A stretch of DNA of 64,000 bases from Rickettsiales bacterium (GCA_021299465.1 JAJTHB010000018.1:23990-87989); one strand, 5' to 3'. Numbered from the stretch's first letter, positions 2,651 through 31,510 are shown. Numbers and translations are program-made. The notes: generated from the sequence alone by a model not told the origin.

Positions 2651-3487
2651 TTAAAAAAATGCTTGAATTACAAGTGTACAGAGCATTGCACTAGGCGGTG
2701 ATTTTACTGAAACATTATAGACCGGATTGGCTAAATTATCATCGTTAATGCAGGCATTAGCATTGGTTGCACTTTTTTTCATGTAATCACCAGGATCGAT
2801 TCCATCGGCACAAACACCCATACCAAAACAAACATCAGTAGCGTTAAAAATTGGCCCCAACGCATGCATCAGACCGGATTCCGGCAAACCATTATCGATT
2901 TTGTAGTCGAGTGCCTGAGCTGTTTCTGCATTGTATATTCCGCTACCATTATTATCTGCAGCAATCATTGCAATGATGTTTTGTCCTGGCATCTCAACAG
3001 AAGGGGCTAGGTCTGATTTGTTGATGATCCAGAATCCTCCCGGCGTAAGAGGGGTCATCTTAAGTGGTTGCGAGATGGTGCCGGGAGTATCGAGATTAGA
3101 GATTGGGCTTAAAAACAAGTTAGATTGGGTTAAGTGATACCAGAAATTGACGCGCTCACTTTTTTCTGGAGGCGTTGTAGCATTGTTTTCCACGATACCG
3201 TTTCCATTGCCATTGTTTCCAACCTCCCCAGCGAAACCAAGTCCGAGATCTTCTGCAACATTACAATCCCCAGGTATGCATTTATTTTTTTGTACAAAAG
3301 TCGCAATAGCAAGGTTGAGGGATTCTATTTGGCTAGCCTGCGCGCGAACTTCCGCCGCGCGAATCAAGCTCTGACCCATCAGTATTCCGGCAGTTAGTAG
3401 GCCAATCACAACCAGCACTATCGACACCTCAACTAATGTAAATGCTTGCTGGGTGTTGAAGGTCGGTTTTAAGATTTTGGTTTTCAT
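2651..3487 (-). CDS. prepilin-type N-terminal cleavage/methylation domain protein (orphan type IV pilin / pseudopilin-like)
   Basis: MKTKILKPTFNTQQA/FTLVEVSIVLVVIGLLTAGIL is a class III signal peptide with Glu at +5. The ATG at 3487 lies 2 nt after the fabH stop, with AAGGTGG just upstream. The region is AT-richer than its flanks. Confidence 0.75.
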   Translation of the reverse strand: MKTKILKPTFNTQQAFTLVEVSIVLVVIGLLTAGILMGQSLIRAAEVRAQASQIESLNLAIATFVQKNKCIPGDCNVAEDLGLGFAGEVGNNGNGNGIVENNATTPPEKSERVNFWYHLTQSNLFLSPISNLDTPGTISQPLKMTPLTPGGFWIINKSDLAPSVEMPGQNIIAMIAADNNGSGIYNAETAQALDYKIDNGLPESGLMHALGPIFNATDVCFGMGVCADGIDPGDYMKKSATNANACINDDNLANPVYNVSVKSPPSAMLCTLVIQAFF

Positions 3488-6618: not shown

Positions 6619-7845
6619 TCAAACAGCCTTTGCAAGTTTTGGCGCTTCGTTGCCATAGATGTAGTCACGCGTCAGCGGTACGGCATCGATTTTTTTGGCA
6701 AACTGGATCTGCCACGCCATGGTGCCTGAGTAAATCATCGCCAGCTCGCAGCCGGTTAAATACAAGTCAAACATGCGGTAAAACACTTCCCCGTTCATGG
6801 CGCGGATGCGCTCGGCGTTTGCGCGGTAGCGCTTTTTCCATTCACGCAGCGTGTAAGAATAATGCAGGCGCAGCACCTCGGCGTCAGTCACCCAGAAACC
6901 AGCTTTCTCGATAAATGGAATGGTCTCCGAAAGCGCCGGCAGGTAGCCCTTGCGGAACATATATTTTTCCAGCCACGGCTGGGTGGCAAGGGACGGTTTA
7001 TTGTAGCCGATCGAATGCAGCAGCATGAGGCCGTCTTCTTTCATCAGCTCATGCACTTTGCCAAAATATTCCGGGTAATGCGGCAGGCCGACATGCTCGA
7101 ACATGCCGACCGAGACAATGCGGTCAAAGGTCTCATTCACGTGGCGGTAATCCTGCAGGCGGATGTCGATTTTGCCTTCAAGGCCGGCGGCCTTCACGCG
7201 CTCTACGGCCAGCTGATGTTGCTGCGCCGAAAGCGTGACACCCACCACGTTCACGCCTTTTTGTTTTGCCATCTCCATGGCAAGGCCGCCCCAACCGCAG
7301 CCGATATCCAGCACGCGCTGGCCGGGCGAGAGATTCAGCTTGGCAATGATGTGGCTCTTTTTATTGATCTGCGCCTGCTCCAGCGAATCCTGCTCGCTTT
7401 TGAAATAGGCGCAGGAATATTGCATGTCTTTATCGAGAAACAGCTGGTACAGCTCGTTGGAAATATCGTAGTGGAACTGGATGTTTTTGGTCGCGTTGCC
7501 AATGGCATTATTCTGCCAGATGCGGCGCAGGCCATAGCGCGCCAGCGTGATGGCTTTGGCAAATGGGAAATCTCGAAACGCCTGATTATTCGCCGCCAGC
7601 ACGCGCAGGAATTTATCAAGATCACCGTCATCGATCGTGAGCGTGCCGAACATGTAGGCTTCCGGCAGGTTGATCGAAGGGCTTACGACCAGTTTCCAGT
7701 GCAGCGCCTTGTCATGCAGCGTAATCGCGGTTGATTCACCCGGGCTGCCCGCATAATGGTGGCGCTTACCCGTGGCATCGGTGACGGTCAGTTCGCCACG
7801 TTTCATGATTTGGCGAAAAAGCACGCCGGCGGGAAAATCGAGCAT
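6619..7845 (-). CDS. cfa: cyclopropane-fatty-acyl-phospholipid synthase
   Basis: SAM motif VLDIGCGWGGLAMEMA, plus HYDISNELYQLFLD and YSCAYF blocks typical of Cfa. Confidence 0.85.
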   Translation of the reverse strand: MLDFPAGVLFRQIMKRGELTVTDATGKRHHYAGSPGESTAITLHDKALHWKLVVSPSINLPEAYMFGTLTIDDGDLDKFLRVLAANNQAFRDFPFAKAITLARYGLRRIWQNNAIGNATKNIQFHYDISNELYQLFLDKDMQYSCAYFKSEQDSLEQAQINKKSHIIAKLNLSPGQRVLDIGCGWGGLAMEMAKQKGVNVVGVTLSAQQHQLAVERVKAAGLEGKIDIRLQDYRHVNETFDRIVSVGMFEHVGLPHYPEYFGKVHELMKEDGLMLLHSIGYNKPSLATQPWLEKYMFRKGYLPALSETIPFIEKAGFWVTDAEVLRLHYSYTLREWKKRYRANAERIRAMNGEVFYRMFDLYLTGCELAMIYSGTMAWQIQFAKKIDAVPLTRDYIYGNEAPKLAKAV

Positions 7846-24435: not shown

Positions 24436-26226
24436 ATGAAATCCGTGCTAAAAACCAACCCATCAGAAGCCCCGAACGCTAAAAACGACCTTCTCGGTGC
24501 AGAGGCGATTGTGCGCGCGCTGGCGAATGAAGATGTTGATACGGTGTTCGGCTATCCCGGCGGCGCTGTGCTGCCGATTTACGATGCGCTCTTCAAGCAG
24601 AACCATGTGCGCCATATTCTGGTGCGCCATGAGCAGGCGGCAACCCACGCCGCGGAGGGCTATGCGCGCTCGACCGGCAAGGTGGGCGTGGTGCTGGTGA
24701 CATCCGGCCCGGGCGCAACCAACGCGGTGACCGGACTCACCGATGCGATGCTGGATTCCATTCCCATGGTGTGCATCACCGGCCAGGTACCGACCCACTT
24801 GATTGGTTCCGATGCGTTTCAGGAAGCGGACACGACGGGCATTACCCGCTCCTGCACGAAATATAATTATCTGGTGCGCTCGGTAGAGGAGCTGCCGCGT
24901 ATCATGCATGAGGCGTTTCATGTTGCGCGCAGTGGTCGGCCGGGGCCGGTGGTGATCGATATTCCCAAAAACATCATGAACCAGAAGCTGGTTTATGGCG
25001 GCAAACCGGATTCGGTGCGCGCCTCGTACAACCCGCAAACGGTTGGTGATCCGGCACAGATTGAAAAAGCCATCCAGCTGATGGCGACCGCGCGCAGGCC
25101 GATTTTTTATGTCGGCGGCGGCGTGATTAATTCAGGCTTAGATGCCTGCGCGAAGCTCACAGAATTTGTGCGCGCAACCGGCTTTCCCTGCACCAATACG
25201 CTGATGGGGCTTGGCGCATTTCCGGGTAGCGATCCGCAATTTGTCGGCATGCTCGGCATGCATGGCAGCTTAGAGGCCAATATGTGCATGGCCGAGTGTG
25301 ACGTGATGATTAATATCGGCGCGCGCTTTGATGACCGCGTGACCGGCAGGCTGGATGCGTTTTCGCCGAAATCAAAAAAAATCCATGTCGATATCGACCC
25401 CAGCTCGATCAATAAAAATGTGCGGGTGCATGTGCCGATTGTGGGCGATGCCGGCGTGGTTATCAGTCAGATGATGGAGGCGTGGAAAGCGCGCAGCGCA
25501 AAACCAGACAAGGCAGCGCTGGCAGAGTGGTGGAAAAAAATCGAGGGCTGGCGCGCAAGGAAAAGTTTTTCTTACGATCAGGGCAAAGAAATCATCAAGC
25601 CGCAGCATGCGCTCGCCCGCCTGCAGGCACTCACCAAGGCGAAGTCGCCTTATATCACCACCGATGTCGGCCAGCACCAGATGTGGGCAGCGCAATATCT
25701 GCTGTATGAAAAACCTTATAAATGGATGACGAGCGGTGGCCTCGGGACGATGGGTTACGGCCTACCTTCCGCCATGGGCGTGCAGATCGCGCATCCGGAA
25801 GATTTGGTGGTGTGCGTGACCGGCGAGGCCAGCTTCATGATGAATATTCAGGAGCTTTCGACCATCACCCAATACCGCCTGCCGGTGAAAATTTTCATTC
25901 TCAATAATCACTGCATGGGCATGGTGCGCCAGTGGCAGCAGATGTTCCATGGCTGCCGCTACAGCGAATCCTACATGGACTCGCTGCCGGATTTTGTGAA
26001 GCTCGCTGAAGCGTATGGTATGAAGGGCCTTCAATGCAGCAAGCCTTCCGAACTCGATGCCACCATCGAGCAGATGATGGCCATACCCGGGCCAGTGCTA
26101 TGCGATATTATCGTCGACCCCGAAGAAAACGTCTACCCCATGATCCCCGCCGGCGCCGCGCATAACGAGCTGCTCCTTCGCCCCGAGGACAATAAGGGTG
26201 ATATCAAGACGGGGGATTTGTTGTGA
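24436..26226 (+). CDS. ilvI: acetolactate synthase large subunit
   Basis: ThDP enzyme blocks are present: GYPGGAVLPIYDAL, TSGPGATN, GGLGTMGYGLPSAMG. Confidence 0.9.
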   Translation: MKSVLKTNPSEAPNAKNDLLGAEAIVRALANEDVDTVFGYPGGAVLPIYDALFKQNHVRHILVRHEQAATHAAEGYARSTGKVGVVLVTSGPGATNAVTGLTDAMLDSIPMVCITGQVPTHLIGSDAFQEADTTGITRSCTKYNYLVRSVEELPRIMHEAFHVARSGRPGPVVIDIPKNIMNQKLVYGGKPDSVRASYNPQTVGDPAQIEKAIQLMATARRPIFYVGGGVINSGLDACAKLTEFVRATGFPCTNTLMGLGAFPGSDPQFVGMLGMHGSLEANMCMAECDVMINIGARFDDRVTGRLDAFSPKSKKIHVDIDPSSINKNVRVHVPIVGDAGVVISQMMEAWKARSAKPDKAALAEWWKKIEGWRARKSFSYDQGKEIIKPQHALARLQALTKAKSPYITTDVGQHQMWAAQYLLYEKPYKWMTSGGLGTMGYGLPSAMGVQIAHPEDLVVCVTGEASFMMNIQELSTITQYRLPVKIFILNNHCMGMVRQWQQMFHGCRYSESYMDSLPDFVKLAEAYGMKGLQCSKPSELDATIEQMMAIPGPVLCDIIVDPEENVYPMIPAGAAHNELLLRPEDNKGDIKTGDLL

Positions 26227-26234
26227 TTTTAAAT

Positions 26235-26287
26235 TGTCACCCCGTCGCATGACGGGGTCTGAATGCCGCCGTAAAGACGGCATGACA
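26235..26287. repeat. composite double hairpin (REP-like) just after ilvI
   Basis: ACCCCGTC-GCAT-GACGGGGT and ATGCCGCC-GTAAA-GACGGCAT are enclosed by TGTCA...TGACA. Confidence 0.65.
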
Positions 26288-26297
26288 GGAACAGGAT

Positions 26298-26642
26298 ATG
26301 ACTAAACACTATTACGTATATATATTAGCGAAAGCGCGAAACAGTACGTTCTATGTTGGTGTGACGAATGATTTGATACGCAGGGTATATGAGCATAAGA
26401 ATGATCTGGCGGATGGGTTTACGAAGAAATACGGCATTAAAATGCTTGTATATTATGAAATGTGCGATGATGTGAATGCAGCCATATGGCGGGAAAAACT
26501 GATCAAGAAATGGCGCAGAGAAATTAAAATGGAAGCGATTGAACGGATGAATCCGCAGTGGAAAGATTTGTATTACGATTTAACGGGTGAACCGGATCCC
26601 GTCATTCGACGGGATGACAAACTGGCGGGGGATTTGTTGTGA
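26298..26642 (+). CDS. GIY-YIG nuclease family protein
   Basis: YYVYILAKARNSTFYVGVTNDLIRRVYEHK carries the GIY...YVG motif plus the conserved R and E. The gene is AT-rich. Confidence 0.8.
   Translation: MTKHYYVYILAKARNSTFYVGVTNDLIRRVYEHKNDLADGFTKKYGIKMLVYYEMCDDVNAAIWREKLIKKWRREIKMEAIERMNPQWKDLYYDLTGEPDPVIRRDDKLAGDLL
26596..26615. repeat. short GC-rich palindrome inside the 3' end of the GIY-YIG ORF
   Basis: ATCCCGTC-ATTC-GACGGGAT, which encodes ...DPVIRRD... Confidence 0.6.
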
Positions 26643-27102
26643 GTAAACCAGAGCTTGTTGTTAGTGTTGCTGCGCTTCATCTTGTAATGCTCAGGAAAAT
26701 TGCAACTGGGAGAGATTGGATTAGAGAAACTGATTTGATTGAAGGGACTAAAGTTACGGATGTTAAGACTATAGATAAACAATTATCAAAATTCGCTGAT
26801 GGGCAAGAAGAGCCTCAGAAGGTTTCATACGAAGATAACAGTCCCCTCAGAAGATCACATGATACCTTTAGAACTATTGTGAAAGCGCAGATTTCTACTT
26901 TGCTGGGTTCTAACTATATTGAATTAATTCCAAGAGATAATCCAATTTATTCAGTTAGCTCTCGCGGCAGGAGTAATTTTTATAAGATTACCGAAAAAGG
27001 CCGTAAATACCTTGCTAATTTACAAGAAAGTTTGGTCAGTGATGGTCCTCACAGTCGAGTCGCATTAGATCATTCAATAAAAACAAGCAATGCAGGTATC
27101 TC

Positions 27103-27106
<4 letters not shown>
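26639..27106 (+). CDS. hypothetical protein, possible winged-helix DNA binding C-terminus
   Basis: An AT-rich ORF. Its GTG start overlaps the upstream TGA and its stop overlaps the ilvH ATG. SRGRSNFYKITEKGRKYL resembles a wHTH wing. Confidence 0.45.
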
Positions 27107-29304
<2,198 letters not shown>

Positions 29305-29335: not shown

Positions 29336-30406
29336 TTGCGTATGAAAGAAAGCCGACTGGATATGGCGCAATGCATTGATGCTGCCAAGAAAGCATGCTG
29401 GCTACTGCTATGCCTGATGCTGCTCATGCGCGCCTTCGTGTGGATGCAGCAGAATATGCCGGAATTTCCAACTCAAAGCCTGGAAGAATATGTCGATGGC
29501 ACAGGTCGAACGCCATTTGCTTACCGCGCATTATTGCCGAAGACCGTTGCCGCCATCGAATATCTGACACCGCAGACATTTCAGCAACCGATTGCCAATA
29601 TGACTCGTGATATCGTAACGCTGTACAGCGCGATGATCTGGACACCCACGGAAATATGGACCAAGCCAGACCGCTTCTTTTTTCTTCGCTTTACCGCGGC
29701 GGCGCTCATGCTCGGGCTACTGATTGGCTATGCGCTTGCGCTTTATCGTTTGGCGAATCTGTTGATGCCACAAACCATGGCAGGCAGGATTGCGCCGCTG
29801 CTGGGGCTTTACCTGATCCCCATTGGTTCTTGGAAAGCCGCTTATCTTTATGATGCCGGAACACTTTTTTTTACCGCATGGGCATTTTACCTGCTGCTTA
29901 CCGGACGCTTAAAAGCCTATCTCTTCTGCTTTATGCTTGCGTGTTTTAACCGCGAAACAGCCTTTTACCTGATGATATTGTCAGCCTTGATACAGCTCGG
30001 CACCATGCCGCGCCGATCTTATTATGGATTTCTGGCCGTTCAATGTCTGCTCTGGGGCGCTATCACCCTCTTGCTGCGAACTATTTATGGCGACAATCTC
30101 GGCTCTTACAGTTTGCATTTACTCAATAATTTACGCTTGGCGATTGGCGGGTTTGAGCTCATCAACGGCTTGTCGATCATCGTTTTTCTATTTGTGCTGG
30201 CCTATGGATGGCAGCAAAAACCTGAGCTACTCAGGAAAACCATCTGGATTATAGCCTTGGCAGCTGCCTTATGGCTGGGATTTGGGCGCATTCAGGAAGT
30301 GCGCGCGATCTATGATGTATTTCCATTCCTGACCTTAATGCTAAGCCATAGTTTGGCAGTGGCAATAAATGGAATGAGTAACGCTGGAAAAAATAACGAT
30401 AGCTAA
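29336..30406 (+). CDS. hypothetical polytopic membrane protein
   Basis: At least 8 hydrophobic helices, e.g. FTAAALMLGLLIGYALALY and IALAAALWLGFG. No family was recognised. Confidence 0.5.
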   Translation: MRMKESRLDMAQCIDAAKKACWLLLCLMLLMRAFVWMQQNMPEFPTQSLEEYVDGTGRTPFAYRALLPKTVAAIEYLTPQTFQQPIANMTRDIVTLYSAMIWTPTEIWTKPDRFFFLRFTAAALMLGLLIGYALALYRLANLLMPQTMAGRIAPLLGLYLIPIGSWKAAYLYDAGTLFFTAWAFYLLLTGRLKAYLFCFMLACFNRETAFYLMILSALIQLGTMPRRSYYGFLAVQCLLWGAITLLLRTIYGDNLGSYSLHLLNNLRLAIGGFELINGLSIIVFLFVLAYGWQQKPELLRKTIWIIALAAALWLGFGRIQEVRAIYDVFPFLTLMLSHSLAVAINGMSNAGKNNDS

Positions 30407-31333: not shown

Positions 31334-31480
31334 TATAATTAATGATATTTAATTATTTTATAATGGTGTCTAGGGCAACTGATTTTCTTGAAAGCAGGGC
31401 GTGGTTACGCTATTGCTGGCATAATTTTTTGAGATTCAGCAGGTTATTTTATTATTCACTGCCCCATGAACTGATAGGAG

Positions 31481-31501
31481 ACCCCGCAATAAATGCGGGG
31501 T
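31481..31501. repeat. short GC-rich palindrome 10 nt upstream of the leuA start
   Basis: ACCCCGCA-ATAAA-TGCGGGGT. The 3' arm covers the only purine-rich SD-like sequence. Confidence 0.6.
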
Positions 31502-31510
31502 GACTAAATT

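Follow-up and report, generated by a model that had tools for sequence, protein, structure and literature searches.

How does a small nuclease gene come to lie inside an essential biosynthetic operon and leave it unbroken? This question is raised by a 64,000-nucleotide stretch of DNA from a Rickettsiales bacterium (GCA_021299465.1, JAJTHB010000018.1:23990-87989; hereafter the window, in whose coordinates positions are given unless another locus is named). In this stretch ilvI and ilvH, the genes for the two subunits of acetohydroxyacid synthase (AHAS), are separated by hairpins, by a gene for a small GIY-YIG nuclease and by a second small open reading frame (ORF), ORF155. A sequence-only reading of the window had described both as inserted and had inferred that a small GIY-YIG mobile or homing element had landed in the operon. 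We consider the following history likely: the nuclease gene and its hairpins form a unit of the Ssn/SRM type (SRM, Ssn-related motif), which was inserted at the ilvI/ilvH junction with a duplication of the ilvI end and with the stop/start linkage of the operon kept, and ORF155 is a separate gene.

The nuclease family itself is already known. Ssn proteins (CDD cd10448) are single-domain GIY-YIG nucleases of about 94 aa that bind a directional hairpin as single-stranded DNA (ssDNA) only, cutting at a point a few nucleotides upstream (Chenal et al., Nat Commun 2025, PMC11893778). The hairpins, called SRMs in general and NTS in Neisseria, lie near 71% of ssn genes and on both sides of 42% (PMC11893778). 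In the same work the NTS-ssnA-NTS architecture was noted as resembling an insertion sequence (IS) and domestication was proposed; no insertion sites, scars or empty sites were shown, and an IS-like origin or mobility was put forward as a hypothesis only (PMC11893778). Our literature search found COG2827 or small GIY-YIG genes tied to miniature inverted-repeat transposable elements, repetitive extragenic palindromes (REP) or target-site duplications in that paper only, and found no follow-up work on Ssn mobility. What is new here is the evidence for past movement of such units that insertion scars provide. The first concrete scars for whole SRM-ssn-SRM units come from this locus and its relatives and comprise filled and empty orthologous sites, long gene-end duplications of variable length and junctions near the expected Ssn cut. 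Together, scars and empty sites make the proposed mobility of Ssn units directly testable.

The nuclease gene lies between two copies of the ilvI terminus

The nuclease gene ends in an exact copy of the final 17 nt of ilvI, CGGGGGATTTGTTGTGA (direct repeats DR1, 26210-26226, and DR2, 26626-26642; Table 1). The repeat had been described as a 16-bp duplication of the ilvI terminus; it is real, and its length is 17 bp. Its 16-mer has exactly two matches in the 64 kb, even at two mismatches (0.05 expected), and none of 100 shuffles gave two or more. As noticed before, the proteins encoded by ilvI (...IKTGDLL*) and by the GIY-YIG ORF (...AGDLL*) both end in GDLL, and the segment between the repeats opens with a double hairpin and closes with a palindrome encoding DPVIRRDDK. 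The GC content over 26200-27100 is 36-44%, against 54-60% in ilvI and ilvH, and that of the inserted unit is about 40%. With its inverted hairpin ends and the duplicated ilvI terminus, the GIY-YIG segment is indeed foreign-looking, AT-rich and inserted.

The duplicated terminus recreates a Shine-Dalgarno sequence (SD, GGGGGA), a GTG and the TGA, so that the nuclease gene, which we call ssn, continues across the right hairpin as far as the duplicated stop, the start of ORF155 lies at this point, an overlap leads on to ilvH and the operon remains unbroken. The GTG of ORF155 overlaps the ssn TGA (GTGA) and its stop overlaps the ilvH ATG at 27103 (ATGA), both as the sequence-only reading had it. 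That reading had also held the translational coupling to be preserved across the whole insert. This stands for the overlaps leading from ssn through ORF155 to ilvH, where the duplication keeps the stop/start linkage into the downstream genes, but not for the step from ilvI to ssn, where a 71-nt spacer with the hairpins separates the ilvI stop from the ssn ATG. The insert contains no terminator-like sites and no excess of promoter-like sites, and an Rfam scan of 25900-27400 (E <= 1) returned no family. The GTG within DR1 is the ancestral start of the downstream gene. It now opens a nine-codon mini-ORF (26222-26251, VILNCHPVA*) that ends inside the first hairpin.

Table 1. Features of the ilvI-ilvH interval in the window and comparable features at other loci (numbered L, in their own coordinates).
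Feature	Position	Strand	Basis or remark
ilvI, acetolactate synthase large subunit, 596 aa	24436..26226	+	Pfam TPP_enzyme_N/M/C
DR1, last 17 nt of ilvI, with TGA stop, SD-like GGGGGA and GTG	26210..26226	+	exact direct repeat
Putative inserted Ssn/SRM unit, 399 bp (linker, hairpins A and B, ssn, hairpin B', linker)	26227..26625	+	bracketed by DR1 and DR2
Hairpin A, SRM-like, left inverted-repeat arm; TTGTCA tag, CCCCGTC/GACGGGG stem, then C	26234..26259	+	stems 26239-26246 and 26251-26258
Hairpin B, ATGCCG...CGGCAT then GACA, inverted relative to A	26263..26287	-	kept in L011
ssn, single-domain GIY-YIG nuclease, 114 aa	26298..26642	+	PF01541; core residues 1-98
Hairpin B', SRM-like, right inverted-repeat arm; TTGTCA tag on the minus strand	26595..26620	-	stems 26596-26603 and 26608-26615; encodes DPVIRRDDK
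DR2, second ilvI terminus; ssn stop and SD/GTG start for ORF155	26626..26642	+	
ORF155, rare PadR/MarR-like winged-helix gene, 155 aa	26639..27106	+	AF2 topology, Foldseek
ilvH, AHAS small subunit	27103..27651	+	Pfam ACT_AHAS_ss, ALS_ss_C
Filled ilvI/ilvH slot, L016	5791-7415		
Filled ilvI/ilvH slot, L024	4549-6499		
Filled ilvI/ilvH slot, L019	5746-6460		
flhA-adjacent ssn, L171	2501-2842		
flhA-adjacent ssn, L180	2501-2965		
flhA-adjacent ssn, L181	1144-1608		
flhA-adjacent ssn, L183	2501-2869		

A probable Ssn nuclease between inverted hairpins

The product of ssn matches the GIY-YIG model PF01541 (E = 5.8e-14) over residues 5-75 of its 114 and has at least 7994 homologues, the best 120 of which measure 92-154 aa. 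Among 40 aligned homologues Y8, Y19, R29 and N85 do not vary, and conservation at H33 and E66 is 90% or higher. An AlphaFold2 (AF2) model built with a homologue alignment has a predicted local distance difference test score (pLDDT) of 86, with about 90 for residues 1-98 and values below 50 in the tail; residues 99-114, which are the read-through of hairpin B' and DR2, are disordered in it. The nearest solved folds found by Foldseek are UPF0213 BH0048, Slx1 and UvrC-N. The suggestion of a homing element did not hold, since the 114-aa protein is a single domain with neither a DNA-binding nor any second domain, and the group I intron endonuclease model TIGR01453 gives 20.4 bits against a cut-off of 56. 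PADLOC, run on ssn, ORF155 and five proteins encoded between ilvI and ilvH in relatives, gave no significant match and no defence system.

The outer hairpins form a 26-nt inverted repeat, TTGTCACCCCGTC...GACGGGATGACAA, that is 88% complementary (TTGTCA...TGACAA). Hairpins A (+) and B' (-) are thus inverted, directional and GTCA-tagged, and each folds as ssDNA, the outer pair far better than shuffled sequence; the region of A and B together folds as ssDNA at -17 kcal/mol (z = -3.8), which none of 200 shuffles equalled. The tail of hairpin B provides the SD of ssn (AGGAA). A TGTCA tag, a GC-rich palindrome and a C after the palindrome are common to the window hairpins.

Many homologues of the protein terminate in PDP[VA][MI]RRGDK, which is a translated hairpin, and some start with PQQVRHD, a translated upstream hairpin; because translated hairpins recur in this way at homologue ends, the hairpins are conserved companions of ssn. 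At 80 related metagenome loci ssn was repeatedly found between inverted hairpins, with stems that vary by lineage and a constant 5'-TGTCA tag. SRMs detected by regular expression lie within 300 nt of 16 of 67 related genes and on both sides of 7. Exact matches to the published degenerate SRM motif, HGTCWYN(0-2)YYVSBRHN(0-5)WNVSBRGN(0-2)RNCYNB (PMC11893778), flank homologues that share 60-66% identity with the window protein, and in L102 (66% identity) hairpins on both sides fit the Neisseria NTS consensus. The window stem CCCCGTC falls just outside this motif, a match to which is a weak criterion because it was hand-built from 29 genomes.

The SRM context of its relatives is indirect but strong evidence for assigning the window protein to the Ssn family, and by analogy with characterised members it would bind and nick its hairpins as ssDNA. 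The locus resembles the Ssn/SRM system in having a gene for a single-domain GIY-YIG protein (about 95 aa) between inverted, directional, GTCA-tagged hairpins with a C after the palindrome, solo hairpins near other genes, and close homologues with canonical SRM or NTS. It differs in that the unit is embedded in an essential biosynthetic operon, where it is co-oriented and stop/start-linked, and in that it lies between duplications of a host-gene end; for the published system no insertion scars or empty sites were shown. The exact window protein occurs in metagenomes at this locus only. Viral contigs yielded no relative of ORF155, and one of them (L188, IMG/VR UViG_3300020477_000177) yielded two hairpin copies and no ssn: two REPIN-like doublets of about 80 nt, at 764-845 and 3245-3330, each made of the exact window hairpin A and an inverted second hairpin, with no ssn within 5.6 kb.

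Junctions in relatives and the age of the insertion

The junction was surveyed in one genome per species with ilvI, which gave 80 loci. The C-terminal EIK[TS][KG]DLL* is native to ilvI across the clade (L011-L029), and DR1 is therefore the genuine ilvI end. In L013 (ttGTGAcc) and L029 (ttATGAcc) the ilvH start directly overlaps the ilvI stop, and this is the empty ancestral junction. L015 and L016 have no ssn unit, and a winged helix-turn-helix (wHTH) ORF begins at their ilvI stop. A GIY-YIG gene adjoins ilvI in one of the 80 genomes only, that of the closest relative, L011 (ilvI 92% identical at the amino acid level).

The L011 unit occupies the corresponding site; to the left it has the double hairpin, and to the right both hairpins in inverted form. 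Its second ilvI terminus, AGATCAAGACGGGGGATTTGTTGTGA, matches its own ilvI end at 22 of 26 positions, and the 17-mer of DR2 is identical in the window and L011 although both its flanks in L011 are unalignable; from about ssn codon 95 to the ilvH ATG nothing else aligns between the two. Outside this block the divergence is even, with nucleotide identities of 86.4% for ilvI, 87.4% for ssn, 83.6% for ilvH and 86.7% for ilvC, and a third-position divergence of 0.30-0.35 throughout. The ssn codon differences comprise 27 synonymous and 5 non-synonymous ones, and the protein is 91% identical over residues 1-101. Given the shared unit and the equal divergence, insertion and duplication predate the species split, so the landing is not a recent one. 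By this comparison the duplication of the ilvI terminus would originally have spanned at least 26 nt, of which 17 are left in the window. On the same comparison, ssn is maintained by purifying selection and has co-diverged with ilvI, ilvH and ilvC, which points to the ability of such a unit to persist in an essential operon via its stop/start chain. In L011 the left-end double hairpin also occurs a second time, as a solo copy immediately before the ilvH ATG (about 6880-6950), and the winged-helix gene of L011 is therefore bracketed by SRM hairpins.

The sequence-only reading had proposed comparing this junction across related genomes, and the comparison indeed found empty sites (L013, L029) as well as related units with gene-end duplications elsewhere (L091, L186). 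It had also held that the same genes, resident at this site in relatives lacking the duplication, would speak against an insertion; they are resident in L011, but together with the duplication.

Related units in other gene ends

In L091 (ssn 77% identical to that of the window) the unit lies 22 nt into ilvH, between exact 23-bp repeats, GATGAAAGACATCGTCTACGATA (23/23), and a stub ORF on the upstream side continues across the hairpin, its stop forming an ATGA overlap with ssn; the matching empty site is L031. In L186 (ssn 74% identical) the unit lies 59 nt into leuA, with a 56/59 repeat that starts at the ATG. The duplications of these independent events all exceed shuffles (maximum shuffle score 12-13). 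In the window, L091 and L186 the duplications measure 17 (26 in L011), 23 and 59 bp, and the linkers from duplication to hairpin tag, unrelated to one another, measure in the same order 7/1, 9 and 5 nt on the left and 5/3, 14 and 12 nt on the right. One edge of each duplication is at most 1 nt from a start or stop codon, and the presumed illegitimate junction lies 0-7 nt from the expected Ssn cut, on one side per unit. It follows that complete SRM-ssn-SRM units entered gene ends on at least three occasions, and every entry was accompanied by a duplication that rebuilt the interrupted gene.

Further units were found just upstream of ilvH (L172 and L185), upstream of leuA (L185) and inside an ABC-transporter operon (L184). 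Moreover, in three lineages of metagenome-assembled genomes (MAGs) (L171, L180/L181 and L183) an ssn 71-72% identical to that of the window stands immediately upstream of flhA and ends overlapping the flhA start (Table 1). One of these loci, L181, belongs to the same MAG as L019. Of the 52 ssn genes whose flanks were long enough to judge, 23 run in the same direction as both neighbours and 7 are antiparallel to both. When more flank duplications were sought in the 80 metagenome loci, the other long repeats proved to be same-orientation repeated SRMs. In L172 a 119-aa ORF with CPLC...CEKC (2038-2397) lies between ilvI and the ssn unit abutting ilvH; it is possibly HNH-like or a zinc ribbon, and has no match in Pfam, NCBIfam or PADLOC.

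A variable gene slot between ilvI and ilvH

In relatives, varied small genes fill the 0.4-2.2 kb between ilvI and ilvH, and many of them begin with a GTG or ATG that overlaps the ilvI stop. The slot is empty in L013, L020, L022 and L029, and elsewhere it contains one to four small ORFs (L011-L036). The architecture of ORF155, an N-terminal '..G[IV]L.FL' helix, then 'NP..', then 'Y.ITE.G..L', is common to slot genes of L011, L015, L016 (two copies), L024 and L025; other contents are a Cys-rich lipoprotein (L021, L025, L026), VapBC (L019), a membrane protein (L030) and others. On this sequence evidence the ilvI/ilvH overlap is a variable slot for small, fast-turnover genes in the 'Rickettsiales bacterium' MAG clade, a role newly seen here in one alphaproteobacterial clade, with one of its genes copied elsewhere together with an ilvI flank. 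In 13 relatives no duplication bracketing the whole slot content rose above shuffles.

ORF155 itself is rare. A word-indexed protein search retrieved its own 97% cluster only. To this a full HMMER search of 1.84 billion representatives added a single genuine relative, P0122 (53% identity, E = 1.5e-31), and public data contain only these two clusters. The HMMER search also returned a 4429-aa protein, whose 18 weak repeat matches were rejected as spurious (BLASTP E about 0.02 per repeat). A single-sequence AF2 model of moderate quality has a winged-helix topology (core pLDDT 65-89), and its Foldseek matches are mostly winged-helix proteins (MarR, TubR, STIV F93, LmrR and AspA) at E 0.03-0.3, with a Foldseek probability of about 0.9 or more for most top matches and up to 0.99. 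A profile of the wHTH family, compared with the PDB, matched PadR and MarR best (E 0.16-1.4; PadR 0.16). ORF155 passes no Pfam or NCBIfam cut-off (HTH_45 14.8 against 25.5 bits, Sso10a 13.8 against 60), and the slot proteins likewise gave only sub-threshold winged-helix matches in these collections. The slot wHTH ORFs are weakly alike (BLASTP E about 0.006; hhalign profile against ORF155 P = 9e-4 over the wing), and a profile of nine slot proteins retrieved its own members only. With PadR/MarR regulators ORF155 shares a predicted H-H-H-wing topology with a C-terminal helix, the 'Y.ITEKG..L' wing motif and its best PDB sequence and fold matches (PadR, MarR, LmrR, AspA); it differs in a disordered insert of about 25 residues between helices 2 and 3, in its place between two AHAS subunit genes and in falling below all family-model cut-offs.

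Alternative explanations

Several points weigh against the history we favour. The filing of the protein as Ssn is indirect, through the SRM context of its relatives, and both hairpins flanking ssn deviate from the published SRM motif by 1-2 stem positions. The 64 kb hold one ssn copy and one further SRM. Flank duplications occur only where a unit sits in a gene end, and elsewhere there are none, or repeated SRMs. The codon-edge position of the duplications and the variable linkers of 1-14 nt make a poor fit to a simple target-site duplication by a transposase, and both expression from the ilv promoter and translational coupling are predictions. Finally, DR2 could belong to a wHTH cassette, since a relative of ORF155 travels with an ilvI terminus.

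This last point supports the best of the alternatives, which we nevertheless regard as unlikely: that DR2 is the 5' flank, with SD and start, of a wHTH cassette placed downstream of a pre-existing ssn unit. The homologue P0122 lies on L187 (1-1030, Logan SRR22184553) after the infB stop, between infB and rbfA and without ssn. Its 5' flank, AAGGTGAGATCAAGACGGGGAATTTGTTGTGA, is about 33 nt of ilvI terminus, its 3' flank, CATGACC, is an ilvH start, and the cassette stands between a 28/32 duplication of the infB terminus, with ATAA microhomology at the left junction. A wHTH cassette has thus kept an ilvI terminus, and the block from about ssn codon 95 to the ilvH ATG seems to have been exchanged together between window and L011. 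The same explanation would need two different wHTH alleles placed at the same point after the same ssn unit. Furthermore, the 33-nt flank in L187 reaches further into ilvI than either DR2, which indicates copying from a plain ilvI-wHTH junction, the ancestral state in the history we favour, and in L091 and L186 ssn units have gene-end duplications by themselves. The ilvI and ilvH flanks in L187 therefore argue that the cassette was copied, flanks included, from a plain ilvI-wHTH-ilvH slot; they support ilvI-GTGA-wHTH as the state that received the ssn unit and the wHTH gene as an independent cassette. L187 also has a palindrome with 18-nt arms between P0122 and rbfA.

Less probable still is that ssn and its hairpins are a long-resident domesticated module that was never mobile as a unit, the repeat being a local duplication that restored coupling; that the hairpins proliferated separately, in a REP-like manner, is just as improbable. 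Domestication has been proposed for Ssn (PMC11893778), and the window has a single copy of ssn, which is inherited vertically and kept under purifying selection. Both solo SRMs and SRM doublets do occur without ssn: a hairpin at 31477-31505 (-), AGTCACCCCGCATTTATTGCGGGGTCTCC, 5 nt upstream of the leuA ATG (31511), is the sole exact match to the published motif in the window (ssDNA fold z = -6.8). This solo hairpin may be the remnant of a unit, because L185 and L186 have a complete ssn unit there. What argues against a module that never moved are whole units between gene-end duplications at three sites (the ilvI end, the ilvH start and the leuA start), orthologous empty sites, foreign base composition and a patchy distribution among close relatives, with ssn beside ilvI in 1 of 80 genomes.

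The sequence-only reading had described a GIY-YIG cassette and a wHTH-like ORF inserted together; the wHTH ORF is not part of the same cassette. A recent composite homing or mobile element, with the wHTH protein as the DNA-binding partner of the nuclease, is very unlikely. Both ORFs are AT-rich, adjacent and GTGA-linked, GIY-YIG homing enzymes require a DNA-binding module, and ssn shares the catalytic fold and something of a selfish-element flavour with I-TevI-type enzymes. The wHTH gene, however, lies outside the repeat-bracketed unit, and it diverges differently: the L011 slot ORF is 24% identical to ORF155, against 91% for ssn and about 90% or more for the flanking genes at the protein level. 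It occurs without ssn in L015, L016, L024, L025 and, between infB and rbfA, L187. No wHTH family member adjoins any other ssn in about 90 loci, for which reason a functional ssn-wHTH pairing was dropped. The insertion is as old as the species split, and the group I intron endonuclease model stays far below its cut-off, as reported above. In contrast to I-TevI-type enzymes, ssn encodes no DNA-binding domain, is not in an intron or phage and lacks a homing site that could be recognised; a homing event that proceeds by gene conversion produces no duplication, and the ssn unit has one.

An assembly artefact or a chance repeat can practically be dismissed: some short-read contigs do break or turn chimeric about 95 nt upstream, at 26131-26134, but the arrangement is identical base for base on contigs from 10 independent samples and the window, the repeat is far beyond chance, and L011 was independently assembled.

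Proposed history and mechanism

In the history that we favour, an Ssn/SRM unit would have entered directly 3' of the ilvI stop in the common ancestor of the window organism and L011, at a junction that previously would have held a small winged-helix gene with its GTG start overlapping the ilvI stop, and the entry would have duplicated the ilvI end (about 26 nt). The unit would be transcribed from the ilv promoter, and for translation ssn would rely on an SD of its own that comes from the tail of hairpin B. After terminating ssn at the duplicated TGA, ribosomes may restart at the ORF155 GTG and then at the ilvH ATG, and the protein would nick its hairpins when these are single-stranded. Since then ssn has been kept by purifying selection, and ORF155 would be an independent accessory cassette that diverged fast or was replaced. 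The present role of the Ssn protein could be self-maintenance, or a modulation of recombination around ilv-leu as in Neisseria.

The unit has the terminal inverted repeats of a classical insertion sequence (26-nt arms, 88% complementary), and lacks a fixed-length target duplication abutting conserved element ends. It resembles REP/REPIN-RAYT and IS200/IS605 systems in the single-copy nuclease gene between inverted hairpins recognised as ssDNA, in non-autonomous hairpin doublets elsewhere and in largely vertical inheritance. It differs from these in its enzyme, GIY-YIG in place of their HUH/Y1 transposase, and in that IS200/IS605 insert without target duplication whereas ssn units show duplications of 17-59 bp. 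Homology-facilitated illegitimate recombination during natural transformation would give duplications of variable length. With that process the units share one junction at a gene boundary, where homology between donor and recipient would begin, and another, presumably illegitimate, a few nucleotides from the hairpin; the L187 cassette differs in having two illegitimate junctions.

From their sequences, the duplications do not look like the work of a fixed-stagger transposase and would fit two candidate origins: staggered breaks with fill-in under strong selection, or one-sided homologous plus one illegitimate joining. Building on the second, we hold it possible, if on balance doubtful, that a route unlike transposition lets SRM-ssn-SRM units, and occasionally unrelated small cassettes like the wHTH gene, spread inside a genome and from one related genome to another. 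Ssn would make DNA ends a few nucleotides 5' of the hairpin in ssDNA, such as transforming DNA. On one side, such an end would be joined illegitimately within a gene end, and on the other, recombination would proceed by homology. This would yield duplications of 17-59 bp that rebuild the gene and splice the newcomer into its translational chain. If true, this route would account for three things that were observed: every duplication has one edge at a start or stop codon, the opposite junction lies 0-7 nt from the predicted cut, and units accumulate at operon junctions (ilvI/ilvH, ilvH, leuA, flhA).

Contig variants around the locus

Some contigs depart from the window in the vicinity of the unit. 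Both L009 and L010 begin at window position 26134. L006 opens with about 220 nt of ilvI from a distant alphaproteobacterium (84% identity to L057), and this foreign part is fused at a conserved 31-mer to sequence identical to the window. L006 was considered as a recombinant of a divergent ilvI with an identical cassette, and this was rejected, the contig being probably an assembly-graph branch or chimera at the 31-mer. L007 (at about 1007/1008) is without 71 bp within the ilvI 3' end, corresponding to window 26114-26184, with a frameshift, and L005 (at about 3587) is without 75 bp further downstream, corresponding to window 29687-29761; both gaps may be population variants or assembly errors.

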